Source: a virus. From it: a DNA stretch of 64,000 bases. The notes under the pieces were generated by a model. The model searched no databases and was not told the origin of the DNA. It saw only the letters and a program-made list of their open reading frames with translations. Of this stretch, positions 5,136-63,895 are shown in pieces. The DNA lies in the IMG/VR virus record IMGVR_UViG_3300021424_002547, positions 35,686 to 99,685 of that record; one strand, written 5' to 3'. Each line of letters starts with the position of its first letter. Within the stretch, counting starts at the first letter, position 1. The position numbers and the translations under genes are program-made.

Positions 5136-5858
5136 CTAATCTAACGTGCTTAATATTTTATCATGCACACACTTATGGGTATGCTTCCCAGGATGACTTA
5201 AATCTCTCGCAAAATCATTGTCTGCCCATATTTCATTTGTAAAAACTTCATTAGAATTGTAAGTCTTAAATTTAATTCGATATGAATTGCATATATTTTC
5301 AATCGCTAATATGTTCTTCTTTTGATTGAGGAAAGAATTATTATTGTTCAGCAACCACGTTTTATAAAATCCATTATTCAAATATTCCGATTTTTCGTGC
5401 CTAAAAAATAGCACATCTTCATCATCCCAGAGTTCTAATCTAGTTGGTTCTGGACTAAGACAAATTACTATCTTTGGTAATAACTTCGCTATGTAATAAT
5501 ATGCAAGTCTAAATGAAGTATCATTAGAACTTGCACCCAGAGCTAGATTATAATATTTCATATTTAGGGATTTAGATAACTGATAAGCATATACTTCTTC
5601 TAATTGTAATCCGGTTCCAAATGTTAAACTACAGCCCAAAAATAATATTGAATTTCTATCGTGAGAGAACTCGTCTGATCGAAATCCTTCATTATTAAAA
5701 TTATAATAAATTTTTTTTTCTAGCCAACCGTTGACCGCTAATAAATTTCTATTTTTTTGCAAATTACGAACGAATCTTTCCTTCGTATCAAATAATTCCC
5801 ATTCTTGTGTGGTCCCAGAAAAAATTTTCCAAGGATGACTATTTAACGGAATTTCCAT
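5136..5858 (-). CDS. SGNH/GDSL-like hydrolase or acyltransferase
   Basis: FLGCSLTFG (block I), NLALGASSN (block II), DLSHPG (block V DxxH). Confidence 0.7.
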   Translation of the reverse strand: MEIPLNSHPWKIFSGTTQEWELFDTKERFVRNLQKNRNLLAVNGWLEKKIYYNFNNEGFRSDEFSHDRNSILFLGCSLTFGTGLQLEEVYAYQLSKSLNMKYYNLALGASSNDTSFRLAYYYIAKLLPKIVICLSPEPTRLELWDDEDVLFFRHEKSEYLNNGFYKTWLLNNNNSFLNQKKNILAIENICNSYRIKFKTYNSNEVFTNEIWADNDFARDLSHPGKHTHKCVHDKILSTLD

Positions 5859-5863
5859 AAGCG

Positions 5864-5892
5864 TATTTATGGTCGAAGTTTATCAATAAATA
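5864..5892. promoter_or_regulatory. Back-to-back TAAATA late-type promoters for divergent genes
   Basis: TATTTA at 5864-5869 and TAAATA at 5887-5892, each exactly 5 nt from an ATG, with no Shine-Dalgarno. Confidence 0.6.
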
Positions 5893-5897
5893 TAGTT

Positions 5898-6533
5898 ATG
5901 GACGATATTTTGTTCGCTAAAATCATTTTTCCAGATTTAAACAAAGAAAAATCTACATACGAAATTATGAAGATTGATAAATCTTATTGGTTTTGGGATC
6001 CCTATAGAGCAACCAATATGCTTTCACTAATGACAAAAAATCCTGTCCCCGGACCATTTGGAACTAAAAATAATCTACAAGGAGAATTTCAATGGTTGGC
6101 TTATACTCCCCCAGTGATAATAGATTGGTTTGAAACATACGTTTTTCCGTGGATGGGAACTAAAACCAGAATTATGGCACTGCTTACAAACCAGAAATCT
6201 AAAAATTTAGAACATGTAGATTGTGATAAAAATTCGATCTTCACAAAACAACATAAATTTAGAATAGTTTTAAAAGGAAAAACAGAAACACTGTATTTTA
6301 AAACTGATAAGCATGATGTGTATGTTCCAAATATTACATCACCATTTTTAATGGACGGAAGTTGGCCTCACGGAATGAATAACTTCGACGATGATTATAA
6401 GTTGACTATAGCAGCCGGAGCTCCTTGGGTGGGTAACGATTCATACACCAACATAGAAATTTTAATGAAGAGATCAGAATTCGTTTTCCCAGAGGATTAC
6501 AAAATTTATTTCAAAAAGGAATTTTCTACGTGA
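5898..6533 (+). CDS. Fe(II)/2OG oxygenase-like protein
   Basis: EHVDC...KFRIVL...MDGSWPHGM...KLTI, an HxD...H pattern. Confidence 0.6.
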   Translation: MDDILFAKIIFPDLNKEKSTYEIMKIDKSYWFWDPYRATNMLSLMTKNPVPGPFGTKNNLQGEFQWLAYTPPVIIDWFETYVFPWMGTKTRIMALLTNQKSKNLEHVDCDKNSIFTKQHKFRIVLKGKTETLYFKTDKHDVYVPNITSPFLMDGSWPHGMNNFDDDYKLTIAAGAPWVGNDSYTNIEILMKRSEFVFPEDYKIYFKKEFST

Positions 6534-7198
6534 ATGATTTTATCTTAAAAACTTATGACAATTTAACGATCCAAGATAAAGAATTTTTTTTTAATTTTTG
6601 CCGAGATGCTTCGAAAGAAACGGAAAAATCGGCGTCTGTTAATATGTGGGCTAGAAATACCTTTGTTAAACCATGGACTCTGGGATATCGATTAGAATCT
6701 ACTAATGAATTTAAAGAACCGAATGGAAAATTTTATATTCTATACAATAACAACGAAGTAATTGGATGTAGCGGTATACATGTAAGCGAATTTCATCCTT
6801 TGATATTTTCGGCTGGAGTAAGGACTTGGATCAAAAAAGAGTATAGGAATCAATCTATTAACAAAAAATATTTTTTCCCAGAACAACGATCTTGGGCTAT
6901 AAAGAAAGAAGCAAAAATAATATTTCTGTCATTTAATGAGTATAATAAAAATTTAATACAGGTTTTTAAAAGAAATAGATTAGGCGAAAATAAAGAAAGA
7001 GTTACAAATAGAAATAAAAATGACCTATTCAGTAATGGACTTAAAATAATCGATTTTCCGCTGATTATTAATCAAACAAAGCAATGGATATGTTACGAAA
7101 TTATAGATGAAGATTTTGATTACGATTGGACTCGACTTGCGTACTCAGATGATAGAAAAGAACAAATTTATACAAAAGATCTTTCAAAAAGATTTTAA
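6530..7198 (+). CDS. GNAT-fold acyltransferase-like protein
   Basis: FYILYNNNEVIGCSG...RTWIKKEYRNQSI (motif A-like), FNEYN. Confidence 0.55.
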   Translation: MNDFILKTYDNLTIQDKEFFFNFCRDASKETEKSASVNMWARNTFVKPWTLGYRLESTNEFKEPNGKFYILYNNNEVIGCSGIHVSEFHPLIFSAGVRTWIKKEYRNQSINKKYFFPEQRSWAIKKEAKIIFLSFNEYNKNLIQVFKRNRLGENKERVTNRNKNDLFSNGLKIIDFPLIINQTKQWICYEIIDEDFDYDWTRLAYSDDRKEQIYTKDLSKRF

Positions 7199-7200
7199 AA

Positions 7201-8688
7201 ATGGCAGAAATAGTATTGTTTACATGTATAGAAAGTGGAGGATTTTTCCGGAGTATCGGAGCTTATCAAATAGCTAATGCGTTAAGACAACAAGGCTATA
7301 CAGTACAGGTAGTTGATTGGTTATCTACTATTATTTCCAAAAATAATAGCATTTTCCTTAATATATTAGAAAAATATGTATCAAAAGATACCTTATGGAT
7401 CGGGTTTAGCACTACTTTTTTCTTTCATAAACCTAAAAAGAATTCAAATAAAATTAATAAAATCGATGAAACATTTAAAAACAATATTTTTGATAACAAA
7501 CAAATTACCGAGATTAAAGATTACGTTTATTCAATATCTCCAAAATGTAAATTTGTTCTAGGGGGCGGCAGAGCATATATAGAAGATACTTCCGGACTAA
7601 TAGATGTTTTTATTTTAGGATATGCAGATCAATCAGTAATAGAATTCACCAGATTTTGTCAAAACAAAAATCCATTTTTCCAATATAATTTATCCAAAGG
7701 AAAAATGATAATAAACAATGATACAAAGGCAGTTAATTATGATTTTTCAAATTCCAAATTCAGTTGGCATGATTCGGATCATATAAATTTTATGGAAGCT
7801 CTGCCAATAGAAATTTCTAGGGGATGTATATTCAACTGTAGTTATTGTTCGTATCCGTTAAACGGTAAAAAGAAATTAGATTATATTAAAAATCCGGAAA
7901 TATTAACAGAACTATTTCTTTCAAATTACGAAAAATACCAGACTACAAATTATGTTTATTTAGACGATACACACAACGACAGCACTGAGAAATTAGAACT
8001 ACTATTTAATAAAGTTTATTCTAAATTACCGTTTAAAATTAAATTTTGTACCTACCTTAGATTAGACTTACTGAATGCTCATCCAGAAACTATTGAATTA
8101 TTGTTATCAAGTGGATTAGTAAGTTGTTTTTTTGGCATAGAAAGTTTAAATTATGAATCTAACCGAGTTATCGGTAAAGGCATTAAACAAGATAAAATTA
8201 TTTCCACTTTGCAAAAAATAAAAGACGTATGGAAAGAAGATGTTAGGACTGAGGGAGGATTCATAATAGGATTGCCAAACGATTCTGTCGAATCAGTTAA
8301 ATCATGGGTGTCTACTTTAGAAAATGAAAATTTATTACATAGTTATAGATTTCATTCTTTAGGAATTAATCAAGTTTTTAAACAGAAACCATGGTCAAGC
8401 AAATTTGATCAAGATCCTATAAAATATGGTTACAAAATGTTACCAAACAATCATTGGATTAATAATAAAGGTATGACGTCGTTTCAAGCATGGCAAATTT
8501 ATATAGAATTAGAAAAAAGGCTAGGCAATAAACTTCCATGGACTGGTATTTTTGATTTCCATAATCTAGGTGCAAATTTTGAAGAATGTTTTGTCAGTGA
8601 TAGAATAGAAATGTATAAAAAATATTATAACAATAAAATAGAACTATATAGTAGTTACTTAAGGAAACTGTTACATGAACAAATTTAA
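7201..8688 (+). CDS. Radical SAM enzyme with B12-binding-like N-terminal domain, second paralog
   Basis: EISRGCIFNCSYCSYPLNGK, YLDDT, FGIES, FIIGLPND; clearly homologous to 2035..3558. Confidence 0.85.
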   Translation: MAEIVLFTCIESGGFFRSIGAYQIANALRQQGYTVQVVDWLSTIISKNNSIFLNILEKYVSKDTLWIGFSTTFFFHKPKKNSNKINKIDETFKNNIFDNKQITEIKDYVYSISPKCKFVLGGGRAYIEDTSGLIDVFILGYADQSVIEFTRFCQNKNPFFQYNLSKGKMIINNDTKAVNYDFSNSKFSWHDSDHINFMEALPIEISRGCIFNCSYCSYPLNGKKKLDYIKNPEILTELFLSNYEKYQTTNYVYLDDTHNDSTEKLELLFNKVYSKLPFKIKFCTYLRLDLLNAHPETIELLLSSGLVSCFFGIESLNYESNRVIGKGIKQDKIISTLQKIKDVWKEDVRTEGGFIIGLPNDSVESVKSWVSTLENENLLHSYRFHSLGINQVFKQKPWSSKFDQDPIKYGYKMLPNNHWINNKGMTSFQAWQIYIELEKRLGNKLPWTGIFDFHNLGANFEECFVSDRIEMYKKYYNNKIELYSSYLRKLLHEQI

Positions 8689-9133
8689 AGAAAATCACTT
8701 GCGAACTATATCTAAGGTTATTTCTTGGAGAGTTCTTATAACAATCAGCCATATGGTTAATGCATTCATAGTAACAGGAAGTCTGCTAATGGGTGTTAAG
8801 ATAGCAGGACTTGCCTTGGTAATTAACAGTGCTTTGTTCTGGATCCATGAACGTGCATGGAACATTTTTCAGTGGAATCGTCGAGAGAACGAAAAATTAA
8901 ATTTCGCAGAAGGCCATCCGAGATCTATTTCTAAAGTAGTATCTTGGAGAATTTTGATCACCGTAAGCAATTTCGTGATTCCATTTGTCATGACCGGTAG
9001 TTGGGGACAGGCTGCGCTATTTGCGGGAATGGCTACTGTAGTCAATATCATTCTATATTGGAGCCATGAAAGGATTTGGAATCGCATAAAATGGGGGAAA
9101 TCTGTAGAAACAAATATATCATACATATCATAA
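8675..9133 (+). CDS. DUF2061-type membrane protein with two repeats
   Basis: Two copies of R(T/S)ISKV(I/V)SWR...HER(A/I)WN. Confidence 0.75.
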   Translation: MNKFKENHLRTISKVISWRVLITISHMVNAFIVTGSLLMGVKIAGLALVINSALFWIHERAWNIFQWNRRENEKLNFAEGHPRSISKVVSWRILITVSNFVIPFVMTGSWGQAALFAGMATVVNIILYWSHERIWNRIKWGKSVETNISYIS

Positions 9134-9135
9134 AA

Positions 9136-10068
9136 ATGAATGAAATAGTTGATTATGGCATTAATTTTGGTTTTGATAATAATAAATTTTTTGTGGATTA
9201 TATCTCGTGCGGGTCAGACATTGGAAATTATAGGGAAGAATTTAAAAAACGTGCAGTAGAATTATCTAAAGCAAGCAAAAAAATATTGTTAGGATTAAGT
9301 TCTGGGCTAGATAGTCAAGCAGTATTACATAGCTTTTTTGAGCAAGGCATTAAAATCGAATGTGCATTTTTATATCAACCTAAATTTAATGAAATAGAAT
9401 ACAATCAATTAAAAATTGTTGCTAAAAAGTATAACATAAATCCTATTATTATAGAACTTGATCCTAATAACATTAAAGAAGAAATATTAGATCACTATAA
9501 TCAAACAGGAATCCCTCCTAATCAACTGATACACAAAAAATTTCTACAACAATTACCAGAAGACTACGATTTTGTTCAAGGAGTACACGGTCCTGACATT
9601 TTTTATAGGAACAATACTTGGTATTCCCTAGATTGTGCAGATTCTATGGAAATTTCTAGGCTGAGAGGGTTCGGTATGCTGGAAAGGAAAGGAAAAATAA
9701 TATGTTGGGAAAGGACTGGTTCTATATTATTAAGTATTTTAACAGATCATATTACTACATCATTTATGTATTCGTATAACTATATCGCCAGTAACCATCT
9801 AAAAACTACAGGAAAAGAAATTAACTTTATGAAAGATCACTGGGATATCTACATCAAACCCTTTCTATATGGAAAATATTGGAAAAATGAGTTAGAATAT
9901 TTTCCTAAATATCAAGGGTGTGAAGGTATTGATTATGTCATAGACGGACCAAAACACAATTATAGGAAAAATCGTGTAGTTATAAAATACGATGCATTAA
10001 TAAAACATCTTAAAAATCCTAAAGGAACAATTAAAAGAATTTATGAGTTTGAAGAAAATAAAAAATAA
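9136..10068 (+). CDS. PP-loop ATP pyrophosphatase (asparagine-synthase / adenine nucleotide alpha-hydrolase-like)
   Basis: ILLGLSSGLDSQAV, a variant of SGGxDS; C-terminal PKYQGCE. Confidence 0.6.
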   Translation: MNEIVDYGINFGFDNNKFFVDYISCGSDIGNYREEFKKRAVELSKASKKILLGLSSGLDSQAVLHSFFEQGIKIECAFLYQPKFNEIEYNQLKIVAKKYNINPIIIELDPNNIKEEILDHYNQTGIPPNQLIHKKFLQQLPEDYDFVQGVHGPDIFYRNNTWYSLDCADSMEISRLRGFGMLERKGKIICWERTGSILLSILTDHITTSFMYSYNYIASNHLKTTGKEINFMKDHWDIYIKPFLYGKYWKNELEYFPKYQGCEGIDYVIDGPKHNYRKNRVVIKYDALIKHLKNPKGTIKRIYEFEENKK

Positions 10069-10078
10069 CAATTTTCCA

Positions 10079-10107
10079 TTGATTTTTAACTTGACTGAAT
10101 ATAAACT
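10079..10107 (+). promoter_or_regulatory. sigma70-like promoter for the tRNA-like RNA
   Basis: TTGATT-N17-TAAACT; predicted +1 falls at about 10114, the first base of the RNA. Confidence 0.5.
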
Positions 10108-10113
10108 AAAAAC

Positions 10114-10225
10114 GTGGTCGTGAGCAAATTGGCAAAGCTCCCGCTGGACCCATAGTCCAGAATGGGGACGGGACGATGAGTATAACTCGCAGTCTTTGTA
10201 GGTTCGAAACCTACCGGCCGCACCA
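10114..10225 (+). tRNA. Non-canonical tRNA-like RNA (112 nt) with elongated anticodon and variable arms; CAT in the anticodon-like loop
   Basis: Acceptor stem GTGGTCG/CGGCCGC plus A-CCA; D arm GAGC-AAATTGGCAAA-GCTC; T arm GTAGG-TTCGAAA-CCTAC; central hairpin CTGGAC-CCATA-GTCCAG; second hairpin GAC..GAGT-ATA-ACTC..GTC. Confidence 0.75.
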
Positions 10226-10266
10226 TAACATAACATAAGTAAAATACATTTTATAAGGAAAACAAA

Positions 10267-10461
10267 ATGTCAAACACAGTAGAACAATTAAAAACACAAT
10301 TCGACGCATTCCTGGCAGAAGATGCTAAATTTACAGCAGGCAATGGATCTGCCGGCACCCGTGCTCGCAAAGCACTGCAAGAAGTGGCCAAACTGGTCAA
10401 GGCCCGCCGTAATGAAATTACAGCAGAGAAGAATGCTCGCAAGGAAGCCAAGGCCGGGTAA
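10267..10461 (+). CDS. Histone H1-like (Hc1-family) small DNA-binding protein
   Basis: GNGSAGTRARKALQE signature; basic and helical; AAGGA RBS. Confidence 0.8.
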   Translation: MSNTVEQLKTQFDAFLAEDAKFTAGNGSAGTRARKALQEVAKLVKARRNEITAEKNARKEAKAG

Positions 10462-11009
10462 TGGACTACGATGCATTTTCTAGCGGTCAGGTCGTAAGCA
10501 AACTATGGTTAGCCCAAGAACTAGAACCGATCGCTAGAGTGCATGCTAATCCAGCCAGGATAGTTTTAGTAGGCGGTTGGTACGGAGTTTTTAATTTCAT
10601 ATTAAGGGTGAGATCAAATATGTCTATAGAATCTGTCAGAAGCATCGATATCGATGCAGACGCCTGTTCCGTAGCAGATAAGATTAACGATACTTGGGTC
10701 TGGCAAAATTGGAAATTCAAATCTATTAATTCTGATGCCAACGACCACGATTATTCTAACAGTAACCTAGTCATAAACACCAGCGTAGAACACATAGACA
10801 CGCATCGATGGTTTGATAATATACCAAACGGGTGTTTGGTAGCATTACAAAGCAATGACATGGATCACGAAGATCATTGTCATAATCACGGATCGCTAGA
10901 TGATTTCAAGGGCGATTTTTCGTTATCGGAAGTTTTTTATTCTGGCATCAAGCATTTTGGGTATCCAGATTGGGGATTCAATAGATTCATGATCATAGGA
11001 AAAAAATAA
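10461..11009 (+). CDS. Class I SAM-dependent methyltransferase-like protein
   Basis: VLVGGWYG motif I, SIDID, INTSVEH. Confidence 0.7.
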   Translation: MDYDAFSSGQVVSKLWLAQELEPIARVHANPARIVLVGGWYGVFNFILRVRSNMSIESVRSIDIDADACSVADKINDTWVWQNWKFKSINSDANDHDYSNSNLVINTSVEHIDTHRWFDNIPNGCLVALQSNDMDHEDHCHNHGSLDDFKGDFSLSEVFYSGIKHFGYPDWGFNRFMIIGKK

Positions 11010-11020
11010 AGGACGATTTT

Positions 11021-11494
11021 ATGGACGACAAAGACAAAATAATTGGCAATGAAGATACTATGATCAATATCGATTATCTCGGTGGTGCCGCTGGACAATC
11101 TGTTCTGAGTTTTGATTGTTCAGATACCATAACTTTAGATACATCGATAACCTCACCTTGTACTATCACCATACCAGGATACAGTGCGCACTACAATTAC
11201 CCTAATACATTTACTACCAGCAGCGGATCTGGCTATACGCTAGGTGGAAGTATTCTCAACGACGGTATAGTTAGTATAGGTAATGACGGTATTGATATCC
11301 GAGAAGGCGGGGACATCAAGATCGGAAACCAAAGCCTCAAAGAATTTATGACGAAAATGGAACAGCGACTGGCTATCCTAGTTCCAGATCCTGCCAAATT
11401 AGAAAAATTTGAAGCACTTAAAAAAGCCTATGAGCATTACAAAACCATGGAAAGCCTCTGTTTCGACGAACCGATCGATGATGAAAACAAATGA
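11021..11494 (+). CDS. Hypothetical phage protein
   Basis: ORF with AAGGA RBS; low-complexity N-terminus, helical C-terminus (LKKAYEHYK). Confidence 0.6.
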   Translation: MDDKDKIIGNEDTMINIDYLGGAAGQSVLSFDCSDTITLDTSITSPCTITIPGYSAHYNYPNTFTTSSGSGYTLGGSILNDGIVSIGNDGIDIREGGDIKIGNQSLKEFMTKMEQRLAILVPDPAKLEKFEALKKAYEHYKTMESLCFDEPIDDENK

Positions 11495-12042
11495 TAAAAG
11501 TCTACGATGATCTCATTCCTGTACATCTGCAGGATTTTTTTGAATTATCTATCCTAGGACGCACCGACAGAGAAGACGAATGCCTACATCCCACCATAGA
11601 TCTTCGTTGCAAATACGAAAGCACGTCTAGGGAAAACGACCATACTCCGATAAGTTTTACGCACGTATTAAAATCCAGTTCTAAAGTTTCGAATCACCTA
11701 GATAATTTTGGTCTCATTCCGCAGATCGTTTGCAGCGAAGAAAATGCTATCCTTAGAGAAATAATCACCGCAAGGATCTTTCTGACCGTTCCCCATAAGA
11801 CAGACTTAAAAAATTATGCTGCGCATACCGATTTTGATTTCCCGCATCATGTCTGTCTTTATTATGTAAACAACGCAGATGGACCTACAGCATTCTATGA
11901 TCAGGAAGGAAAAGTCGTCGATGAAGTAATGCCTAAAAAGGGCAGAGTAATATTCTTCGATGGATTGATCAAACACGGTGGTGGAATACCTAGGAATGGC
12001 CCTAGATGCATCGTTAACTATGATATTTTAATAAAGGAATAA
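11491..12042 (+). CDS. Fe(II)/2OG oxygenase (phage type)
   Basis: AHTD...CLYYVNNADGPT...PKKGRVIFFDG..KHG...RCIVN. Confidence 0.8.
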   Translation: MIKVYDDLIPVHLQDFFELSILGRTDREDECLHPTIDLRCKYESTSRENDHTPISFTHVLKSSSKVSNHLDNFGLIPQIVCSEENAILREIITARIFLTVPHKTDLKNYAAHTDFDFPHHVCLYYVNNADGPTAFYDQEGKVVDEVMPKKGRVIFFDGLIKHGGGIPRNGPRCIVNYDILIKE

Positions 12043-12043
12043 C

Positions 12044-12727
12044 ATGAATGTTCGCTTGGTATCCTATTCAAAACCCTCAGATGAATTTGCAGTCCTCGGT
12101 ATCCAAGATGCGCAGGAACTCATCGCGTTCTGCGCCCGTGTCAGCAATCCCGCAAACCAATTCAATTCAGAGACATCAGAGAAGCTTATCCGATATCTTA
12201 TTAAACACGCACACTGGAGCCCCCTCGAGATGGTCTCTGCTTGCTTGGAAATCACGACGACTAGAGACATCGCAAGACAGATCCTTAGACACAGATCGTT
12301 CAGTTTTCAAGAGTTCTCACAGCGATATGCTAACCCTGTCGAGGATCTTAATTTCCACATTAGAGAAGCACGGTTGCAGGACACAAGAAACAGACAGAAC
12401 AGTGTCGAATTGGATATGCAAGACCCCAAACAAAGAGAACTTGCACGTCTATGGGCGGAAAAACAACAGACTGTCATTAGAGCCAGTAGAGAAGCCTACA
12501 CTTGGGCTGTATCTAACGGTATAGCCAAGGAGCAGGCTCGCTGTGTCTTACCGGAAGGCAATACTGAAAGCCGGCTGTATATGAACGGCACACTGCGTTC
12601 ATGGATCCATTATATAGAATTACGTGCAGCCAATGGTACCCAAAAGGAGCACATGGACATCGCCCGAGCCTGTGCCGAAACCATAGCCAAAGTATTTCCA
12701 ATGGCAGAATCATTAATTTCCAATTGA
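12044..12727 (+). CDS. thyX: Flavin-dependent thymidylate synthase
   Basis: HWSPLE, RQILRHRSFSFQEFSQRY ThyX motif, EQARCVLP. Confidence 0.97.
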   Translation: MNVRLVSYSKPSDEFAVLGIQDAQELIAFCARVSNPANQFNSETSEKLIRYLIKHAHWSPLEMVSACLEITTTRDIARQILRHRSFSFQEFSQRYANPVEDLNFHIREARLQDTRNRQNSVELDMQDPKQRELARLWAEKQQTVIRASREAYTWAVSNGIAKEQARCVLPEGNTESRLYMNGTLRSWIHYIELRAANGTQKEHMDIARACAETIAKVFPMAESLISN

Positions 12728-12729
12728 TA

Positions 12730-12758
12730 TTGACAGGTTTTTAAAGATCTCGTATAAT
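12730..12758 (+). promoter_or_regulatory. Consensus sigma70 promoter
   Basis: TTGACA-N17-TATAAT. Confidence 0.85.
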
Positions 12759-12785
12759 TAAGTTGTTCGACATAGAGAAAATATT

Positions 12786-13610
12786 ATGAGAGCAAACTAC
12801 TGGTCATGTTCACGGTTCGCAGATTGGCTGCGGGGTACCGCTAAAATCAAAGCGGGCACCGGCAAAGAATGGCGCCTCTGGGAAGAAGAGGCCAAAACTA
12901 GCCATCCCATCCGTTATTGGATCGTCGAAGAGGGTCTCGATTACCTCCAAAATTTCGTCAATTGGCCCGCGGATCGACTTAATGACATCCGCTATTATAT
13001 CAACAATCGCTGGGTCAGCCATACTCACAGGCTTACTGCTCATCCTAGAGATATCAAACCAGGGTCCTGGTCAGACGTAGGAAATCGTTTCTTGCCTTGC
13101 TTGTTTAACGAACTAGTCGATTTTGTAGAAATCGAGCAGGCTTGGCATCATGTACTGTGGGACAAAGAAGCACGTGAAAAATATCAGACACCTTGGAGTC
13201 GAAATTTCTTTCGTTTTCGTACGTGGCGCTGTTCAGAAGCAGGCGTCGATCACTTGAAGTGGGCTATGACACTGACTAACGAAGAATTCTTAGACGAAGA
13301 TGAGAAGCATCTAGCAGAACCTACCTATCAGGCCAAAGCAGCCAAAGAAATTCTAGAACTTTATACTTGGTGGAAAGAAGTCTATCCAAATCGTCCAGAT
13401 GTCCACGATGCTTCAGGATGGACTGCCTACTGCGAAATGCGCCGTGAAAAAGGTTATAAGTTTCTCGATATGGAAGATAAGACTCCTGAAGAAGCGGAGA
13501 TGTGTAAAACCGCTCTTGACAAATCACAAGAGTTGGAATTACAATATGCTAAAGAAGATGAAGAAATGATGATCCGATTAATCAAAATAAGAGAAAGTCT
13601 GTGGACCTAA
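12786..13610 (+). CDS. Hypothetical phage protein (Trp-rich)
   Basis: 274-aa ORF directly downstream of a consensus promoter; C-terminal MMIRLIKIRESLWT. Confidence 0.7.
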   Translation: MRANYWSCSRFADWLRGTAKIKAGTGKEWRLWEEEAKTSHPIRYWIVEEGLDYLQNFVNWPADRLNDIRYYINNRWVSHTHRLTAHPRDIKPGSWSDVGNRFLPCLFNELVDFVEIEQAWHHVLWDKEAREKYQTPWSRNFFRFRTWRCSEAGVDHLKWAMTLTNEEFLDEDEKHLAEPTYQAKAAKEILELYTWWKEVYPNRPDVHDASGWTAYCEMRREKGYKFLDMEDKTPEEAEMCKTALDKSQELELQYAKEDEEMMIRLIKIRESLWT

Positions 13611-48306: not shown

Positions 48307-49024
48307 TGAAGGTCTGAGATCCAGTGATCTCAAAGAGATGGTATATAATACTTTAGAGATCGACACTTATAGATCTAAGATGGGTGAGGATCGAGATGTC
48401 TGCGTTTTAAGTTTTAAAGTCAAAGATCGGGCACCGGCTAAAGATCTAATGGAGTTTATAGAAAAAGGCTACAACTTCGTGTTAGATGCCGATGTCAGTT
48501 CCGGTGAAAACAAAAACGGTGAATATTTCGTTTTCGTAGAATTAGACCGCACAGAAAAACTCGCAGAACAGATACAAGAATTAATGTATGGCATCAAAAG
48601 GCTCACAGAGATAGATTCCTATAAATTTAAGTATCACAAAAACGACAAAGAGCATGAATTAACCACAGAATCGATCAAATCGTTCGTTCCCAATACTCCG
48701 GTAGACTACGAACGTACCATGAATAAATTACAGGTAGAAAATTATAAAAGATTTTTTAATAAGACACTCATGGACGATCTTAGTTTAGAAAAAGATATTA
48801 TTACTTTTTATAAACCTTTTGACAAATCATATAAGTTTAAAATAATCGACGATCAGGATATCACACCTATAGCAGAGGGGGCGATATCATTAGACGAAAA
48901 ATCTGTTGGAGAAACATTTTGGCTTACTAAAATGTTTGGAGATTATAATATCGCTAAAATAGGTGAAAACTTTCTATTCACCAATGGCGATAAATCAATT
49001 TTATTACAAAGGATCGAACTATGA
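48284..49024 (+). CDS. Hypothetical phage protein
   Basis: Likely start MQNNLPLNE; LDADVSSGE. Confidence 0.6.
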   Translation: MQNNLPLNEGLRSSDLKEMVYNTLEIDTYRSKMGEDRDVCVLSFKVKDRAPAKDLMEFIEKGYNFVLDADVSSGENKNGEYFVFVELDRTEKLAEQIQELMYGIKRLTEIDSYKFKYHKNDKEHELTTESIKSFVPNTPVDYERTMNKLQVENYKRFFNKTLMDDLSLEKDIITFYKPFDKSYKFKIIDDQDITPIAEGAISLDEKSVGETFWLTKMFGDYNIAKIGENFLFTNGDKSILLQRIEL

Positions 49025-49650
49025 GTTTTACATTCGAATTTAAAAAAGAGCACCTATCTGAATTAATAGGAAAAAACCCCTATACAGATTATTGGTATAA
49101 CGCGATGTGTGAAATATTACCCGTATATGATATCAACACTCCGGAGCGTGTAGCAGCATGGTTGGCACAGTGCGCACACGAAAGCGGTTATTTCAAATTC
49201 TTAAAAGAGAATTTAAACTACAAAGCAGAAAGTCTGCTGAAAACTTTTCCCAAGTATTTTAAAACACTGGATGAAGCCAAGCAGTACGAAAAACAGCCAG
49301 AGAAGATCGCCAATCGTGTCTATGCCAATCGCATGGGCAACGGTGATGAGGCTTCGGGAGATGGATTCCGTTATCTAGGACGTGGTCTGATACAGTTAAC
49401 CGGCAAGAACAATTACACGTTCTTTGCTGCCAGCATCGATACACCTTTAGAACAGGTTCCTGAATATCTACAGACATTCGAAGGCGCCGTGCAGAGCGCC
49501 TGTTTCTTTTGGGAACAAAATGGGCTGAACAAATTCGCTGATAGCAGAGATATAGTCACTATGAGCAAGCGTATCAATGGTGGTACTATCGGCATGGAAG
49601 ATCGTCTTATGAAATACGAAAAGTGCCTTAAGATGTTTGGAGTAAAATAA
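49021..49650 (+). CDS. GH19 endolysin
   Basis: AQCAHES, ENLNY, YANRMGNG, YLGRGLIQLTGKNNY, RINGG. Confidence 0.92.
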   Translation: MSFTFEFKKEHLSELIGKNPYTDYWYNAMCEILPVYDINTPERVAAWLAQCAHESGYFKFLKENLNYKAESLLKTFPKYFKTLDEAKQYEKQPEKIANRVYANRMGNGDEASGDGFRYLGRGLIQLTGKNNYTFFAASIDTPLEQVPEYLQTFEGAVQSACFFWEQNGLNKFADSRDIVTMSKRINGGTIGMEDRLMKYEKCLKMFGVK

Positions 49651-52115: not shown

Positions 52116-52958
52116 ATGGACTATTACTCTACTTTAGGTGTTAATAGAAACGCCACCCAAGACGAAATTAAAAAAGCGTATCGCAAGATGGCTATGAACC
52201 ATCATCCTGATCGCGGTGGAGATGAGAAAAAATTTAAACAGATTTCGGAAGCCTATGAAATCTTAAGTGATCCTCAAAAAAAACAGATGGTAGACATGGG
52301 TATAGATCCCAAGAGACAACCGCAAGGTAATGGATTCGGACAAAACGGTCCTTTCGAGTTTCATTTCAATGCTAACAATTTTGATGATATATTTGGTGGA
52401 TTCGGATTTGGTGGATTCGGACACAGACATGTTCAAAGAAACAAAACTATCAGCCTCATGGTGGATCTTACATTAGAAGATGTCTTACAAGGTAAAAATC
52501 TAGATGCAGAAATAGCCATACCTGGAGGAAGGAAAAAGATTATTAATATCGTGATACCGTCTGGAATAGAAGAAGGACAACAGATAAGATATCAAGGAAT
52601 GGGAGATAATAGCATTTCTAACATACCTCCCGGAGATTTAATAGTTAATGTTAGAATCATGCCGCACGGAATGTTTCGACGAGAAGGCGATAACCTAATA
52701 CTAGAAAAATTCATCTCAGCATGGGATGCCATGTTAGGAACAAAAATAGATATTTCTACACTAGACAACAAGTCATTAGAAATCGCTGTACCGGCAGGTA
52801 GCCAGCCCGAAACAGTATTAAGTTGCAGAAACGAAGGATTGCCAAATATGCGTAGCAAGTTAAGAGGTAATCTTTTAGTAAAAATAAAAATTAAAATACC
52901 AAAAATTACATCAACTAAACAGAAAGATCTCGTAGAACAATTGAAAAATGGATTATAA
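52116..52958 (+). CDS. dnaJ: Class B J-domain chaperone (DnaJ/CbpA-like)
   Basis: HPD motif, G/F region, C-terminal domains, no Zn finger. Confidence 0.92.
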
Positions 52959-53442
52959 ACTAGGACCGCATCAAAGCCTTCAACAAGTAAGCACTTCTTG
53001 GGATTTTTCTCGAGACGGTGATTCTGAAAAATTAGAATCTGATCTATGTTATTTTATGCAGAAACATATGGGTATAGGTTTAGCCGCTAATCAAATAGGT
53101 ATTGCTAAACAAATTTTTGTAATGGGCAGCGATAATATTCCGGGATTTCCTAAACCCTTCGCAGTTTTCAATCCAAAAATAATCAGCACAGATCAAGAAA
53201 AAGAAATCTTCAAAGAAGGATGTCTGAGTTTCCCTGGACTTTGGTTGAACGTAAAAAGGCCAAAAAAAATAATAGTGGAGTACCAGAACAGTCGAGGAGA
53301 CATCATAGAAGCAGAAATGGACGGATTAATTTCTAGATGCTTTCAGCATGAATTTGATCATCTCAATGGTATATGTTTCGTTGACATCGTTAGTCCCTTG
53401 AAGTTAAAATTAGCAATACAAAAACTAAGGAAACAAAAATAA
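52948..53442 (+). CDS. def: Peptide deformylase
   Basis: [22 protein letters not shown]. Confidence 0.95.
53381..53410 (+). promoter_or_regulatory. sigma70-like promoter upstream of clpA
   Basis: TTGACA-N18-TAAAAT. Confidence 0.45.
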
Positions 53443-55772
53443 TGATAGAGCCCAGCCAGCACCTGCATAATATCTTTAATACCGCCGTTGAAATAGCCAA
53501 GCAGTTAAATCATGAGTACATCACTATAGAACATCTAGTCTATAGCATCATGAGTGATCAAGAATCGTATGACATGATTTCTAACTTTGGGGCCGATGCT
53601 AATTTTATTAAGACCAATCTAGATCATTATCTAAAAAATAACCTCAAAGAAATCATCTCACAATCTCAGGTAAAGAAACCTAAAAAAACCACTAGTGTTG
53701 AACGTGTGTTGAATCGATGTTTTACACAGGTTTTGTTCAGCGGCAGGCAACGCATGGAGATCGCAGACGTTATTATCAGTGTACTGGCTGAAAAAAACAG
53801 TTTTGGTTATTATTTTCTAAACAAAGGCGGTCTGACTAAAGAAAAATTTGTGAAATATTTCCAAGAAAATGTTATCATAGAAGAAGAACAAGAAAGTATT
53901 CCAGCGACCACGAACAATCAGATAGAAAGAATTCTAAATCAATTCTGCACGAACCTAACCTTACAGGCTAAACAACGTAAGATTGATCCGGTGATAGGAC
54001 GAGACGAAGAATTAGAAAAAATCCAACTGATTCTAGCACGTAGAAATAAATGCAATGTGTTAATGGTAGGAGAACCCGGAGTAGGCAAGACTGCGATCGC
54101 AGAGGGGTTGGCTCGAAAGATTTTCGAGGACAAGGTTCCTAAATTTATCAAAGACCATACAGTCTATACTTTAGATATATCAGCATTATTAGCCGGGTCA
54201 AAGTATCGTGGTGACTTTGAAGAACGAATCAAAGCCGTATTCACCGCACTAGAAAAAAAAGGTAAGATCATTTTATTCATCGACGAAGCACACATGATGC
54301 AGGGTGCAGGGGCCGCTAATCAATCAAGCAACGATATGAGCAATATGCTAAAACCCATATTGACCAAAAAGTCTATGAAAATCATAGCGTCCACTACCTG
54401 GGAAGAATATCGAAAGCACTTTGAAAAAGACCGTGCTTTGATGCGTCGTTTCCAGCGTGTGACCATCGATGAACCCAATGAAGAACTAACTATTAAAATC
54501 TTAAAAGGATTGAAAAAGTATTATGAAAAACATCATGAAGTAAAAATTACCGATGCTGCTATAGATCAGGCTGTGAAACTTTCTATGAAATACATGTCAG
54601 ATAAAAAACTGCCAGATAAAGCCATAGATATCTTAGACTGCGCAGCGGCTCGATATAAACTTAAAGATGACGAAAATATGGAAGGTGTAGAACAGATCGT
54701 AGATATAGAACAGGTTACCTACGAACTCAGTAAGATGATCAACATGCCATTAGAGATTGTTGCTCAGAAAGAAAGCAAAAATCTTTCTGATCTAGAAGGA
54801 AATATGAAATCATCAGTTTTGGGTCAAGATGGAGCTATTGATACACTGCTAGATAAAATATTCGTCAGCCAAGCAGGAATGAAATCACCTAACAAACCTG
54901 TTGGAAGTTTTCTATTCCTAGGACCTACTGGCTGTGGAAAAACTGAAACTGCCAAACAATTAGCAGAAAAGATGGGAATGCAATTAGTTCGATTCGACAT
55001 GAGCGAGTACCAAGAAAAACACTCGGTGGCTCGTCTGATCGGTGCTCCACCGGGCTATGTAGGATACGAAGATAATTCCGGTCAACTGATCACTAAATTA
55101 CAAGAATATCCCAATTGTGTGTTGCTGCTAGATGAAATCGAAAAAAGCCATCCTGATGTTTCTAACATCTTGCTGCAGTTTATGGATAACGGTTTCGTCA
55201 CAGGATCGAATGGCAAACAGGCCGATGGTCGCAACTGTATCCTTATCATGACCAGCAACTTAGGTGCCCGGGACAACGAAAACAACACCATCGGGTTCGG
55301 CGAACTTGAGCGCGAAGGAGAAGATGATAAAGCTATTAAAAAGTTTTTTGCTCCGGAATTTCGCAATCGACTAGATGCAGTAGTGAAATTTGGTAGATTA
55401 AACATCGAAACTGTAGAAAAAATCGTACATAAATTTATCAACGATTTAAACTTCCAACTTAGAGACAAGAATATTGAAATAGTAGCAGATGATAATTCTG
55501 TTAAATGGTTGGCAAAAAACGGATATGATCGAAAAATGGGAGCCAGACCGTTAGCCAGATTGATCGATAATAAAATAAAATCACCGTTGAGTAGAAGGGT
55601 TCTGTTTGGCGATCTCGTCGACGGCGGAAATATACACATCCAACTATCTGGAGAAGAAATCACTTTTACCGTCACTGAACGGGCGAAACCGTTAACAAAA
55701 CAACAGAAAAAATTATTAAAGAGAGGATCTCCTTTAGTGATGGAAGAAAAAATCGAAGATGCACAAACATAG
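53442..55772 (+). CDS. clpA: Clp protease ATP-binding subunit
   Basis: Clp N-domain; two AAA+ modules ([16 protein letters not shown]); IGF ClpP-docking loop; no ClpB middle domain. Confidence 0.93.
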
Positions 55773-57864: not shown

Positions 57865-58200
57865 ATGAAATTATTAGAAATGTTTAGTCCCATTGGGGCT
57901 CCTAAAGACGATCAACAAGATATTGATTGGTTAGAAGATCTTAAATTTTTTATCGACAATGACGATAAGATGCTCAATCAATTTTTCTTTCCTGCTATAA
58001 AAAAGCACAAGGAGCATCAAGGAAATCCTAATGCATACAAACTGTACATCAGACCGTTGAGTAAATGCAAAGAAGCCTATTGCAAAAAATTTGAAATCGA
58101 GCAACCGGAAGAAAAATTTACAAAAGAAAAGATTATCGAACTAGCCAAATATATCGCTTCAGAACAAGAAAACTTTTTGAAAAAAGGCGATTATAATTAA
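57865..58200 (+). CDS. Hypothetical protein with MKLLEMF N-terminus
   Basis: ATG 1 nt after the previous stop. Confidence 0.6.
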   Translation: MKLLEMFSPIGAPKDDQQDIDWLEDLKFFIDNDDKMLNQFFFPAIKKHKEHQGNPNAYKLYIRPLSKCKEAYCKKFEIEQPEEKFTKEKIIELAKYIASEQENFLKKGDYN

Positions 58201-60656
58201 TGTTATTATCAGAATTATTCGAAGATTCAGTCAAGCATGTTACATTCTGTTTCGGTAGAATGAATCCTCCTACCATAGGTCACAAACAGGTCCTAGATAC
58301 TATGAAATCTCAGGGCGGGGAAATAAAGATATTCGTTAGCCAGAGCCAAGATGCCAAAAAGAATCCTCTAGATTATTCTACCAAGATCAAATTCATCAAG
58401 GCCATGTTTCCAGAATATGCCCAGGATGTGGTAGAAAATTCTAGCCTAAACACCGTGGTCAAGGTGGCCAGTTATCTCTATGATCAGGGATATACTGCTG
58501 CGACATTTGTCGCAGGTAGTGATCGTCTAGACGATATGAAAAAACTACTGGAAGCATATAATGGAGTAGAAGGTAAGAGCCACGGTTATTACAAATTCGA
58601 AGTGCTAGATTTTGCCAGCAGCGGTGAGAGAGAAGACGGTGCTGAAGGTGTTGCAGGTGTTTCAGCTAGTGGTGCCAGAGCGGCGGCAGCTAATGGCGAC
58701 TTGGAATCGTTTAAAGAAGCCACAGGGGCCGGTGAACTAAGCGAAAAGTTATATGCGGCTGTTCGTAAAGGTATGGGCATATCAGAATCATACAAAATCG
58801 CAGAATCCGTTTCTATAGATTCAGCGATAAAGAATATCGTTGCTACAGGTGATAGTGTCGCAAAGACCTATGGCGATCTCAAGACCATGGCGGAGAAGTG
58901 GGTCTATAACAACGGCACGCTCAAAGGATTCCACAGGAATGCCGCAGGTGTAGGTAAACGTTGGTATGACACATTCTTTTGGAACAAGATGGAAAACGAT
59001 CTACGCACACTGCTACAGAAAAATCCCAAGGCCGCAGCGAAGATACAAGACTTTCTCAACATAGAGAAGGACGACAAAGGTCATGTCAGTTTTAACATCA
59101 TCGGACGCAGCCTGCCGAGAATATTAAACGACGTGGGCGAGAAAATGGGCAACGACGATCTCAAGAGATTTGGTGCTAACTGGTTCAAGCGACAGAAAGA
59201 CTACGAAGATTATCTAGGTCGTGTAGAAAAAGAAGTAAACGATGAAGAAGATGATGATGACTTCTCTCCCGCACCTAAACAACCCAAAGACAATGTGGTA
59301 GGCCGTCAGAACGCTGCTGCCGAAGACATAGTAAACCAGATACTCAAGAGTATTGACAAGAAGGCTGCGGGAGAGATACGCAACATCATCGCCAGAGAGC
59401 CTAATAAACTACAGGCCCTGCAGAAAGAGTTAGCGAAACGCAACATCAAGGTAGGCGAATCGATACGCAGGATAAAGGAACAAATCCTCGCCGAACTGCT
59501 CGAACTAACTACAGAATTCGTGAAATTAAATGACGGTAGTTTTGTTCAGATACAATATAGACCGATGTTAAACAGGCAACCTATGCCAGGTTCCGTACAA
59601 ATATCGGTAGCAGATCCAAGAGTCATTCCTAATATCACAACAGTTAGGCCGTTGGCCTCTGCGGGAGCATGGCAGCAGGACGCAATAAACAAAGCAGCAT
59701 CATCTGGACAGTTAAAACAAAAACAATCAGGACAAGGTGTGGCGGAAGGCATCCGTGTGGTAGATCAAGACTACGATCTCGATCAAATCATATTAACTTT
59801 AGATATCGAAGGTCGGAGAGCATCATTTACCTATACTGATTACGATGAGAACTTTGAAAACGCAGAAAGAAAGGATGTGTTTGATCAACTACAGGAAAAA
59901 TCATGGTATAAGGGTTTAGATCATCCTACTAAAATGGAGATCTTAGATGCTGCCTACAAGGCTATAAGAGGTGAAGAACCGAGCGAATACAAACCTACAG
60001 TTGGTGATGAGCCATTAGACATAGACGAAGGTGTCTCGGAAGGCGATTTAGAAGAAGACTGGCGGAAGAAATTGGCCGCTGCGGGCATGGCCGGCATGAT
60101 GGGACTCAGCGGTGCTGCTGGTGCAGCAGATCGTGTACCGGATACTGCCAAAGAACCTATCATAGCTACTGTAGTCATCGACGGTGAAGCGAGGAGATTA
60201 GATCTCACTCCTAAAGGGTTTGACGATGTCAAAGAAGCAGAAAGATTTTTAAAAAAATTCTTGGCGGATCGAGGTATAAAAGATTGGCAGGCCAAGATAG
60301 AACGCAGTAAACCGGGAACAGGCAAGTATGAGAGGTTGACTATCTCAGGCATGGGTGGATTAGAAAGCATACATGAAGCGCCTATAGAGATGGATCCTAG
60401 CGATCCAATGGATCCTATGATCTACGGACACGATCGAGCCAATCCCGGAAAACTGAAATATCGCATGGCAAGAGCGGCCGGACAATTAAAAGATCTATCT
60501 TCGAGAGTAGACGGTGCAAGCGCCAGTGAATGGCAGATGATGGCTCGTCAATTCGAAGAACTGAAGATGAACATGGAACAGATAAGACATGCCTTGGAAG
60601 AACTGGGCAAAGTCAGGAAGAAGGGTGGCATTCGATCGATGGGAATAACAGTATGA
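58200..60656 (+). CDS. HxGH nucleotidyltransferase (cytidyltransferase-like) fused to several C-terminal modules
   Basis: FGRMNPPTIGH, KKNPL, AGSDR, SASGAR; GVAEG and GVSEG junctions. Confidence 0.75.
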   Translation: MLLSELFEDSVKHVTFCFGRMNPPTIGHKQVLDTMKSQGGEIKIFVSQSQDAKKNPLDYSTKIKFIKAMFPEYAQDVVENSSLNTVVKVASYLYDQGYTAATFVAGSDRLDDMKKLLEAYNGVEGKSHGYYKFEVLDFASSGEREDGAEGVAGVSASGARAAAANGDLESFKEATGAGELSEKLYAAVRKGMGISESYKIAESVSIDSAIKNIVATGDSVAKTYGDLKTMAEKWVYNNGTLKGFHRNAAGVGKRWYDTFFWNKMENDLRTLLQKNPKAAAKIQDFLNIEKDDKGHVSFNIIGRSLPRILNDVGEKMGNDDLKRFGANWFKRQKDYEDYLGRVEKEVNDEEDDDDFSPAPKQPKDNVVGRQNAAAEDIVNQILKSIDKKAAGEIRNIIAREPNKLQALQKELAKRNIKVGESIRRIKEQILAELLELTTEFVKLNDGSFVQIQYRPMLNRQPMPGSVQISVADPRVIPNITTVRPLASAGAWQQDAINKAASSGQLKQKQSGQGVAEGIRVVDQDYDLDQIILTLDIEGRRASFTYTDYDENFENAERKDVFDQLQEKSWYKGLDHPTKMEILDAAYKAIRGEEPSEYKPTVGDEPLDIDEGVSEGDLEEDWRKKLAAAGMAGMMGLSGAAGAADRVPDTAKEPIIATVVIDGEARRLDLTPKGFDDVKEAERFLKKFLADRGIKDWQAKIERSKPGTGKYERLTISGMGGLESIHEAPIEMDPSDPMDPMIYGHDRANPGKLKYRMARAAGQLKDLSSRVDGASASEWQMMARQFEELKMNMEQIRHALEELGKVRKKGGIRSMGITV

Positions 60657-61798: not shown

Positions 61799-62034
61799 TG
61801 GAAATCGCAGAATTAAAAAGGTTGGCTGGTATCAATGAATTTAAAGGATATGTAAAATACGATCCTGTAAATCCCAACGATGGTAGTAATATCAGCATAA
61901 CTGGTAATGAAAAGGGCGAAATACAGAAAAAAAACAATATAAAACCAGGAACTCCTGAATGGTTCCAACTATGGTTTAGTTTGCCTTACATGACCGGGGA
62001 ACGTCCAGTAGGAGATAAAAAATGGTTGAGATAA
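61795..62034 (+). CDS. Hypothetical protein
   Basis: LKRLAGINE; [13 protein letters not shown]. Confidence 0.6.
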
Positions 62035-62348
62035 CTGAAGCAGCAAAAATAAAGATCATAGATCTGTTGATTGACGAAAACAATCCCAAGTTATTTCTCC
62101 GCACCTTTGTGCAGGGAGGTGGATGTAGCGGTTTCAGTTATGGATTTACTTTTGATGAAGAAGTTAATGAAGATGATTTTGAATTTTCTCTAGATGAAAA
62201 ATATAAGTGTGTTATTGATTCTATGAGTATGCAATACATGACCGGAGCGACAATAGATTATAAAGAAGAACTAATGGGTAGTCAGTTTACCATAAAAAAT
62301 CCAAATGCTGAAACTACCTGCGGATGTGGGAGTAGTTTTTCTATATGA
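62022..62348 (+). CDS. erpA: A-type Fe-S carrier, ErpA-like
   Basis: [26 protein letters not shown]. Confidence 0.88.
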
Positions 62349-62719: not shown

Positions 62720-63895
62720 GTGAGAGCCCGAGAATTCGTCATCGAGAAGAAACGCCGCAAGCGTAGACCACGGTGGGCTGCCTATGGTCCAGGACCCTAC
62801 GGCGGTTATGGCTACTACGCAGGTTATAGTGGAGACGGCGGAGGCGGTGATGGCGGAGTAGGTGAAGCCAGCTATCCCGGCAACGTCGGAGCCATGGAGA
62901 TAACTAAATTCTTTAGGATAGCAGGTCCTAAAGAAAAAGATCTGTTGAAAGTGTTGATACAACGCAAAGACTACAGCCGAGCCTGGGCATTGATACAGGG
63001 TATCACGGGTGTAAAACTACAGGGACGAGAATTCCAAACCGACGAAGGATGGCGAGATACACTGGCTGGATTGGCGTTAGGTACCGGTGTAGCCATGGGC
63101 AGCCCTGCTGATGCTAAAACTAATGTAGAACGAGTTGTCGTATCACCGGGACAAACTGTGTATTCTATAGCCAAAGCATTTGATACTACCCCGGAAGTCA
63201 TTCAAAAATTAAACAAATTAGATAAAGATTTTACTATCAAACCCGATCAGGTTATAAAAGTTCCTAAGATAGATACAGTTGAAATTCCTTCTAAAGAAAA
63301 AAAATCTATTGATAGTAAAAAATCTGTAGAAAAGAAAGATGAAAAGAAATCCGAAAAGAAAATAGACACCAACAAAACTCTAACCGGAAAACCTTTTGAA
63401 GCATTGCTAACTCGAACCGCTCGGTCGTCCGGAATCACAGATCCTATCGAACTGGCGGCTTTCCTAGCCCAGACTTCTGTAGAGACTGGAAGATTCAAAC
63501 ACATGAGAGAAGTCGGCAACAAAGAAAGGATCGAAAGGATGTACGATCTAAAATTCAACCGACAAGGTGCTAAGATACTAGGCAATACCAAACCCGGAGA
63601 CGGCTGGAGATATCGAGGTAGAGGATTTATACAATTGACTGGCAGAGACAATTATACCAGAGCCGGCAGAGATCTCGGCCTCGATCTAGCCAAAGATCCC
63701 GATCTAGTGGCCAGAGAGCCTGAAGTCGCGGCCAGAGCCAGCGTATGGTATTGGAAAACCCACGTTAGACCACAGGTAAACGATTTTAGAGATACTGCTG
63801 CAGTTACCAAAGCGGTTCAAGGGGGGTCGTCTGCGCTGGATCGTAGAGAACGCGAATTCCAAAATTTTAAACAATTACAATTGGCTAAAATATGA
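62720..63895 (+). CDS. Polyprotein ending in a LysM plus GH19 peptidoglycan hydrolase
   Basis: LysM VSPGQTVYSIAKAFDTTPEVIQKLN; GH19 AQTSVET, YRGRGFIQLTGRDNY; MRAREFVIE N-terminus (GTG start). Confidence 0.85.
   Translation: MRAREFVIEKKRRKRRPRWAAYGPGPYGGYGYYAGYSGDGGGGDGGVGEASYPGNVGAMEITKFFRIAGPKEKDLLKVLIQRKDYSRAWALIQGITGVKLQGREFQTDEGWRDTLAGLALGTGVAMGSPADAKTNVERVVVSPGQTVYSIAKAFDTTPEVIQKLNKLDKDFTIKPDQVIKVPKIDTVEIPSKEKKSIDSKKSVEKKDEKKSEKKIDTNKTLTGKPFEALLTRTARSSGITDPIELAAFLAQTSVETGRFKHMREVGNKERIERMYDLKFNRQGAKILGNTKPGDGWRYRGRGFIQLTGRDNYTRAGRDLGLDLAKDPDLVAREPEVAARASVWYWKTHVRPQVNDFRDTAAVTKAVQGGSSALDRREREFQNFKQLQLAKI

Follow-up and report, generated by a model that had tools for sequence, protein, structure and literature searches.

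A signal-peptide-like segment behind a putative head-protease site within a modular protein of a giant freshwater phage

The window analyzed here is a 64,000-nucleotide stretch that forms the final 64 kb of a 99.7-kb viral contig in IMG/VR (IMGVR_UViG_3300021424_002547), and our subject is an open reading frame (ORF) within it that encodes a modular protein of 818 amino acids carrying a signal-peptide-like segment far from its N-terminus. CheckV places the completeness of the contig at 28%, which implies a genome of ~350 kb, and the contig DNA recurs in 20 lake-water metagenome runs, with no RNA run carrying it among the sequencing runs listed. The source is a giant T4-related freshwater phage with a genome of roughly 350 kb. 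Using residues 560-818 as the query against 5.8 billion proteins, we obtained 113 homologues with highly varied architectures; module limits were set by BLAST against these homologues, mapped back onto the query, which divides the 818-amino acid ORF into five parts. Its features are as follows, in window coordinates or in residues of the protein.

58200..60656, plus strand: modular ORF of 818 amino acids, taken from the ORF list
58200..58223, plus strand: N-terminal tag MLLSELFE, ending in L-F-E and resembling the T4 capsid-targeting sequence; assigned from homologue N-termini
Residues 1-208, plus strand: cytidylyltransferase module (Pfam PF01467, PHROG 3041/395), with CTP_transf_like at residues 17-120
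Residues ~195-433, plus strand: module B, from homologue mapping
Residues ~490-615, plus strand: module C, from homologue mapping
60028..60046, plus strand: repeat AAGGTGTCTCGGAAGGCGA at the junction, which encodes (E)GVSEG and with it a V-S-E site two codons ahead of L617
Residues 617-726, plus strand: module D, from homologue mapping
60048..60056, plus strand: L617-E618-E619, an L-x-E motif of the T4-type prohead protease kind; homologues of module D start at query residue 617
60057..60125, plus strand: signal-peptide-like segment, residues 620-642 (DWRKK / LAAAGMAGMMGL / SGAAGA)
60126..60377, plus strand: cargo domain, residues 643-726, with homologues in 38 clusters
60369..60377, plus strand: I724-H725-E726, a second L/I-x-E-type site closing module D, from the sequence and the starts of module E homologues
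60378..60653, plus strand: module E, residues 727-818, starting APIEMDPSDPMDPMIY; from homologue mapping

Residues 612-650 read GVSEGDLEE-DWRKKLAAAGMAGMMGLSGAAGA-ADRVPDTA. From D620, the n-region DWRKK (net charge +2) leads into the uncharged h-region LAAAGMAGMMGL and then into the c-region SGAAGA, which ends in A-G-A↓A (↓ marks a putative cut here and below). We infer a further cut just ahead of the segment, between E619 and D620. A Sec signal is N-terminal in the translated protein, whereas this segment begins at residue 620 of 818; the n/h/c order and the small residues at positions -3 and -1 are both present. Judged by such rule-based features together with the Pfam Tat (twin-arginine translocation) model, residues 620-642 show all the sequence features expected of a signal peptide of the Sec type. 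As for Tat, the window copy carries WRKK and no RR-x-F-L motif. A preliminary description of this DNA had placed, about 620 residues into the 818-amino acid protein and after DLEE, a basic n-region, a hydrophobic h-region, and an AxA site, followed by a domain of ~80 amino acids closed by IHE. Our reading agrees on each point: the segment starts at D620 and occupies 60057-60125, and module D ends GGLESIHE↓A, with E726 followed by A727 (codon 60378-60380).

An AlphaFold2 model built on a 19-sequence alignment predicts a beta-beta-alpha-beta-beta fold for the core of the cargo domain (residues ~652-717, 60153-60350) with a predicted local distance difference test (pLDDT) score of 84-91. The hydrophobic segment is predicted to be disordered (pLDDT <50) and would thus lie outside the cargo fold. 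A Foldseek search of the PDB with the cargo domain returned nothing at E <= 0.001; in the wide VIA-align search, the best match was a de novo designed protein (Z 6.1), and PurS scored Z 5.3-5.6.

The boundaries of the modules coincide with the putative cut sites. Module D starts at exactly L617 in at least 10 independent contexts, and the homologues that match module E begin at query residues 722-726. Taken over the family, 47% of the homology breakpoints lie no more than four residues from a [LIV]-x-E site, versus 20% for randomly placed sites, and only 13 of 2000 random placements reached 47%. Module D is missing from one complete relative (G007) and is in that sense accessory. These observations suggest that the 818-amino acid protein is a bead-on-a-string polyprotein, in which module D would be a cassette combining a cargo domain with an export signal and, ahead of both, a cut site. 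Module E has no signal-like segment of its own. It is helical (APIEMDPSDPMDPMIYG...EELGKVRKKGGIRS) and is the most widespread module among the homologues; it is usually C-terminal and is otherwise followed by GIDPMIDS-VEE↓GW... and another cassette. Module E might serve as a second capsid or scaffold address.

To describe the segment beyond the window, we took 95 distinct segments from the homologues and from 60-odd related loci, a set that includes a few spurious hits in noncoding frames. They share the pattern [LIV]-[DE]-E↓[GDN]-W-[KR]..., then a core of Ala, Gly, and Leu and an AxA end, with the signal segment placed two to five residues after the [LIV]-x-E motif. The residue three ahead of the putative cut is L, I, V, or M in 82% of the segments (the motif background in the same proteins is 1.8% per position), and the residue two ahead is D or E in 65%. 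While G, D, or N directly after the cut was a condition of the search pattern, W-[KR] usually follows it. The uncharged stretch has a median length of 19 amino acids and consists of 39% A, 18% G, and 12% L; 79 of the 95 segments end in a strict AxA and 93 in small-x-small. A typical homologue copy, VEE↓GWKSK-LAGAALAAANLL-GSPAQA↓AEEP, is by its sequence a textbook signal peptide. Several homologues instead carry VEE↓DISRRSFLRGAGALATGAALGATGANA↓Q at the equivalent position ahead of homologous cargo, and in two 489-amino acid proteins (P0028 and P0037) the Pfam TAT_signal model matches at internal residues 201-221, with 24.5 and 23.0 bits against a gathering cut-off of 22.7. Sec-type and Tat-type segments are, on these patterns, interchangeable ahead of homologous cargo.

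The small stand-alone relatives of these proteins retain the tag, the junction, and the signal, as in P0116 (MRAQEIIQE↓GWRENFAAAGIAGALAMGTPAQA), and we saw no example in which the signal starts right at Met1. In P0140/P0145, the junction is duplicated in tandem (...NQLDEDWQHKMLAMSMAGMVDML NENNQLDEDWKKKLAAAGMAGVMGLS...), and one copy has a degenerate hydrophobic segment. The preliminary description had suggested a recurring module, which the 95 homologous segments and their -3 residue bear out, and we regard the junction plus segment, as seen in these alignments, as a conserved, portable cassette rather than a product of chance.

The same arrangement is found in a second gene of the window.

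62720..63895, plus strand: tagged LysM-GH19 ORF (MRAREFVIE...), with LysM at 63137-63265 and GH19 at 63443-63772
63038..63115, plus strand: junction and signal-like segment, T-D-E↓GWRD TLAGLALGTGVAMGSPA DA, preceding LysM-GH19

A parallel DE-linked segment in this gene had been pointed out previously, and we located it as TDE↓GWRDTLAGLALGTGVAMGSPADA at 63038-63115, at least 110 residues inside the tagged protein. Across the whole 99.7-kb contig, these two segments are the only uncharged stretches of at least 15 amino acids after E-[DG]-W-R. Both are rich in Ala and Gly and score 1.27-1.31 on the Kyte-Doolittle scale, while the ordinary membrane helices of the contig mostly score about 2 or more. 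The idea of a recurring E-(D/G)WR module can be extended, in that the module is portable, linked to [LIV]-x-E, and exchanged for Tat-type versions among homologues; the part that holds less well is the tie to the site in the GH19 gene, T-D-E. The composition of the segments (A 39%, G 18%), together with the GH19 domain behind one of them, recalls signal-anchor-release (SAR) domains; departures from a SAR domain are that the segment is not N-terminal, that AxA is conserved, and that nonmuralytic cargo is led as well. Elsewhere in the window, a 209-amino acid ORF (49021-49650) has a second GH19-like match of 14 bits, below the cut-off, and close to it lies an ORF with a lipobox-like LSGC signal (window 50113). 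Their proximity suggests that this may be the real lysis cassette, in which case the tagged LysM-GH19 protein is probably not the lysis enzyme.

Whether a module carries the segment depends on what the module is. In the contexts seen, every GH19 module has an E↓GW[KR]D-hydrophobic segment in front of it (the window, L001, L002, L023, L032, L034, L038, L053, L056, P0080, and the near relative G006). The cytoplasm-type modules lack it: the joint ahead of Pterin_4a and Sigma70_r4 is likewise V-x-E↓G, with no hydrophobic stretch behind it, and the cytidylyltransferase module stands directly behind the tag with no segment. As far as domain assignments tell, the presence of the segment tracks the expected compartment of the cargo. 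This pattern bears on the idea that the segments are relics or linkers with no present role in export, either carried along when modules were captured from secreted-protein genes or serving as Ala/Gly spacers. Such an origin would suit an extremely mosaic family with nucleotide repeats at its junctions, and a segment predicted to be disordered. We nonetheless consider it improbable, since presence and absence of the segment follow cargo type, since Sec-type and Tat-type segments substitute for one another, and since the n/h/c features, the lack of charge, and AxA are kept over 95 variants, with cargo identity down to ~30%, whereas the other linkers of these homologous proteins are highly charged.

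Six homologous proteins contain two signal-cargo units in tandem. P0080, for example, has the order tag, N-module, signal, module D, signal, LysM-GH19, and in P0011 a Pterin_4a module lies downstream of module D behind the joint V-N-E↓G. For such arrangements to make topological sense, the units would have to come apart before export. An alternative that does without cutting places the action in the producing cell, where the segment would serve as an internal signal-anchor: the uncut protein would keep its N-terminal part cytoplasmic and expose all that follows residue 643 to the periplasm, perhaps with release through signal peptidase. In that case the N-terminal tag would not address the capsid, and Sec would deliver GH19 as a (SAR-like) enzyme of lysis or exclusion. 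The RKK on the N-terminal side of the segment agrees with the positive-inside rule, the weakly hydrophobic Ala/Gly-rich composition resembles that of SAR domains, and the 818-amino acid protein has only one such segment. Against this, the second cargo of a tandem, such as the LysM-GH19 of P0080, would stay in the cytoplasm, the cytoplasm-type Pterin_4a of P0011 would be dragged out, and junction and [LIV]-x-E motif go tightly together; moreover, Tat signals placed 200 residues within a soluble enzyme are, to our knowledge, not known to work. We therefore judge a signal-anchor to be unlikely.

At the nucleotide level, the junctions show direct repeats. The sequence AAGGTGTnnnGGAAGGC, encoding G-V-x-E-G, occurs in four copies at window positions 59734, 60028, 60786, and 61326, and the copy at 60028 stops one base short of the L617 codon. 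Another sequence, TGAGAGCCCGAGAATTC, encoding MRAREF, is repeated at two gene starts (62346 and 62721). A separate earlier claim of recombination joints is thereby upheld. By analogy, such joints fit cassette shuffling, which is a feature of T4 internal-protein loci. The codons at the junction hydrophobic position also speak to the possibility that translation starts internally, so that the secreted protein would be a product of its own whose signal is N-terminal in the usual way. The L, I, V, and M found there are amino acids that start codons may encode, but the codons used are ATA (11), GTA (6), GTT (5), ACA (5), GTC (3), TTA (3), and GTG (1), and L617 in the window is encoded by TTA, which is not a start codon. 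These counts exclude a start at the junction, and we regard a separately translated product as barely conceivable.

What the tags resemble is the address of T4 head proteins. Most Met-started homologues begin M-x-[LIA]-x-[EDQ]-[LIF]-[FIL]-E, as judged by eye from the listed N-termini, and neighboring genes of the window begin MRAREFIKE, MRAREFVIE, and MKAKDFI; the N-terminus of T4 IPII and IPIII is MKTYQEFIAE. The T4 capsid-targeting sequence (CTS) comprises 10 residues, which gp21 takes off by cutting after L/I-x-E (PMC9026906). Between the window tags and the T4 CTS, we claim a resemblance only, one of sequence. Peptidase_S77, the family of T4 gp21, was present in all five checked contigs that share the clamp loader of the window (93% clamp-loader identity to the window in G006, ~70% in the others, one of which is a 100%-complete genome of 354.7 kb) and in four of five large contigs with modules D/E. 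Among cultured phages, the nearest relative as judged by the clamp loader is PA5oct (54% identity); it encodes Peptidase_S77 as well and has a free 190-amino acid homologue of the cytidylyltransferase but neither tag nor polyprotein. Given the motifs at the joints, the head protease is the likely cutter of the module junctions. A deposited phage of 156 kb (L063; Phage C48C1, OQ984149.1, Kyanoviridae) has a syntenic cluster at 5365-13139 with a DUF6267-like gene, a cytidylyltransferase, and small genes, nearly all of which carry M-x-x-F-K-x-[FY]-[ILV]-x-E tags; no signal-like segments were seen there. Tags without signals in C48C1 make the tag system look older and wider than the buried signals.

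Putting these elements together, we propose that module D travels as cargo of the capsid, that cutting by the head protease uncovers its Sec-type signal, and that it is then exported, a reading for which we see the case, built from sequence, as evenly balanced. The CTS-like tag MLLSELFE would bring the polyprotein into the prohead, where a gp21-type protease would cut behind Glu at the module joints (..GVSE↓G.., ..LEE↓D.., ..IHE↓A..) and leave a fragment of ~107 residues (D620-E726) whose new N-terminus is the signal. This fragment would be ejected with the DNA into the next host and exported to the periplasm by the host Sec machinery, or by Tat in the case of the twin-arginine variants. Signal peptidase I would cut after A-G-A, and the small domain, together with the LysM-GH19 product of the neighboring gene, would act on the envelope. 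The more general scheme of "inject, then export", in which capsid polyproteins are cut by the head protease and host translocases deliver effectors, including a wall hydrolase, to the periplasm before phage expression, is one that we put forward tentatively and with more doubt than conviction.

The same cleavage and packaging logic would apply if the cut hydrophobic N-termini were instead membrane-insertion peptides, entering the inner membrane from outside to build or anchor a conduit for DNA while GH19 opens the wall. Precedents exist in the T7 gp14-16 conduit and in the lytic transglycosylase domain of T7 gp16, a wall hydrolase that travels with hydrophobic segments. However, the conserved AxA and the true twin-arginine motifs suggest that the segments are read by signal peptidase and TatBC rather than just inserted into lipid, 12-19 weakly hydrophobic residues make a poor stable anchor, and contractile-tail phages carry their wall hydrolases on the tail tip. 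We find a conduit role quite improbable.

Several observations count against the proposal of protease-unmasked export. We know of no precedent for the pick-up of an ejected protein by Sec or Tat. The 99.7-kb contig has no Peptidase_S77 or other prohead protease, although as a 28% fragment it is uninformative on absence, and the free cytidylyltransferase homologue of PA5oct has no mass-spectrometry virion note. A tblastn search with modules D and E against 50,697 deposited phages gave no match; with no deposited phage carrying module D/E, no virion proteome is applicable. In the LysM-GH19 gene, Thr takes the place of L, I, or V three residues ahead of the cut, which weakens the tie of that junction to a T4-type site. 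The hydrophobicity of the h-region in module D is modest (Kyte-Doolittle ~1.3 over 19 amino acids and 1.6 over the best 10). Finally, the structural matches of the modeled cargo domain reflect the common beta-beta-alpha-beta-beta arrangement and give no functional lead, and a search of the ESM Atlas with this domain yielded no usable match.

Turning to the neighboring genes, the next gene probably begins at the ATG at 60653 (MKAKDFIPASKPRNFVAKN..., tag plus DUF7230). This ATG overlaps the TGA stop of the 818-amino acid ORF as ATGA, which suggests translational coupling, and the 422-amino acid ORF listed from 60530 is probably too long. Within the tagged cluster, at 62022-62348, lies an untagged HesB/IscA-type Fe-S assembly gene (PF01521); in G006 (L154), a near relative, this gene is a neighbor of GH19. 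Three protein-handling genes (window 52116-55772) lie directly upstream of the tagged cluster.

52116-52958: DnaJ
52948-53442: peptide deformylase
53442-55772: ClpA/ClpB-like double AAA+ protein of 776 amino acids

Of the phage proteins that arrive with the virion, some are known to work in the cytoplasm (T4 IPI and Alt) and others to form an entry channel (T7 gp14-16). If the proposal holds, host Sec and Tat would address virion proteins onward to the periplasm, a new route to that compartment at time zero that could be used for superinfection exclusion, receptor masking, the countering of periplasmic defenses, or wall remodeling. It would also provide a natural protease-gated signal peptide in bacteria, and the layout of the cassette (tag, V-x-E joints, optional signal, cargo) could guide phage-mediated protein delivery to the periplasm. 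Our literature searches turned up no account of phage proteins in which an export signal lies hidden behind a head-protease site.

Among known systems, the closest fit by sequence and analogy is the internal-protein (CTS/gp21) system of T4, of which the arrangement described here would be a variant in which packaging is itself inferred. The likeness to IPI, IPII, IPIII, and Alt, which T4 ejects together with its DNA, lies in a short N-terminal tag closing in hydrophobic-x-Glu, in highly diverse cargo behind a conserved tag with conserved nucleotide joints that favor shuffling, and in a gp21-family (Peptidase_S77) protease, here encoded by relatives of the window phage. In contrast, the T4 internal proteins have a single cargo, act in the cytoplasm, and carry no hydrophobic or export signal, whereas here cargos are strung together and some have Sec- or Tat-type signals behind the cut. 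In the jumbo phages phiKZ and SPN3US, many head-internal ejection (inner-body) proteins are cut after Glu, at several sites, by a gp21-like protease (PMC9026906). These phages differ in their S/A-x-E motif, which lacks L/I/V at -3, and no export signals have been reported for their ejected proteins.

Secreted and SAR endolysins, such as P1 Lyz and fOg44 Lys44, are peptidoglycan hydrolases led by a Sec-dependent, weakly hydrophobic Gly/Ala-rich segment; theirs is a true N-terminal signal on a late lysis enzyme, while ours is internal to a tagged protein. The unmasking step itself has its closest mechanistic analogue, as we see it, in the alphavirus capsid/PE2 junction, where the cut made by the capsid autoprotease exposes the signal sequence of PE2; flaviviruses likewise have internal signal sequences. 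What these viruses would share with the phage proteins is a viral polyprotein with an export signal in its interior, one that proteolysis brings to the N-terminus or activates. The eukaryotic systems work co-translationally at the endoplasmic reticulum of the producing cell, whereas here the cut would take place in the prohead and export would follow post-translationally in the next host.

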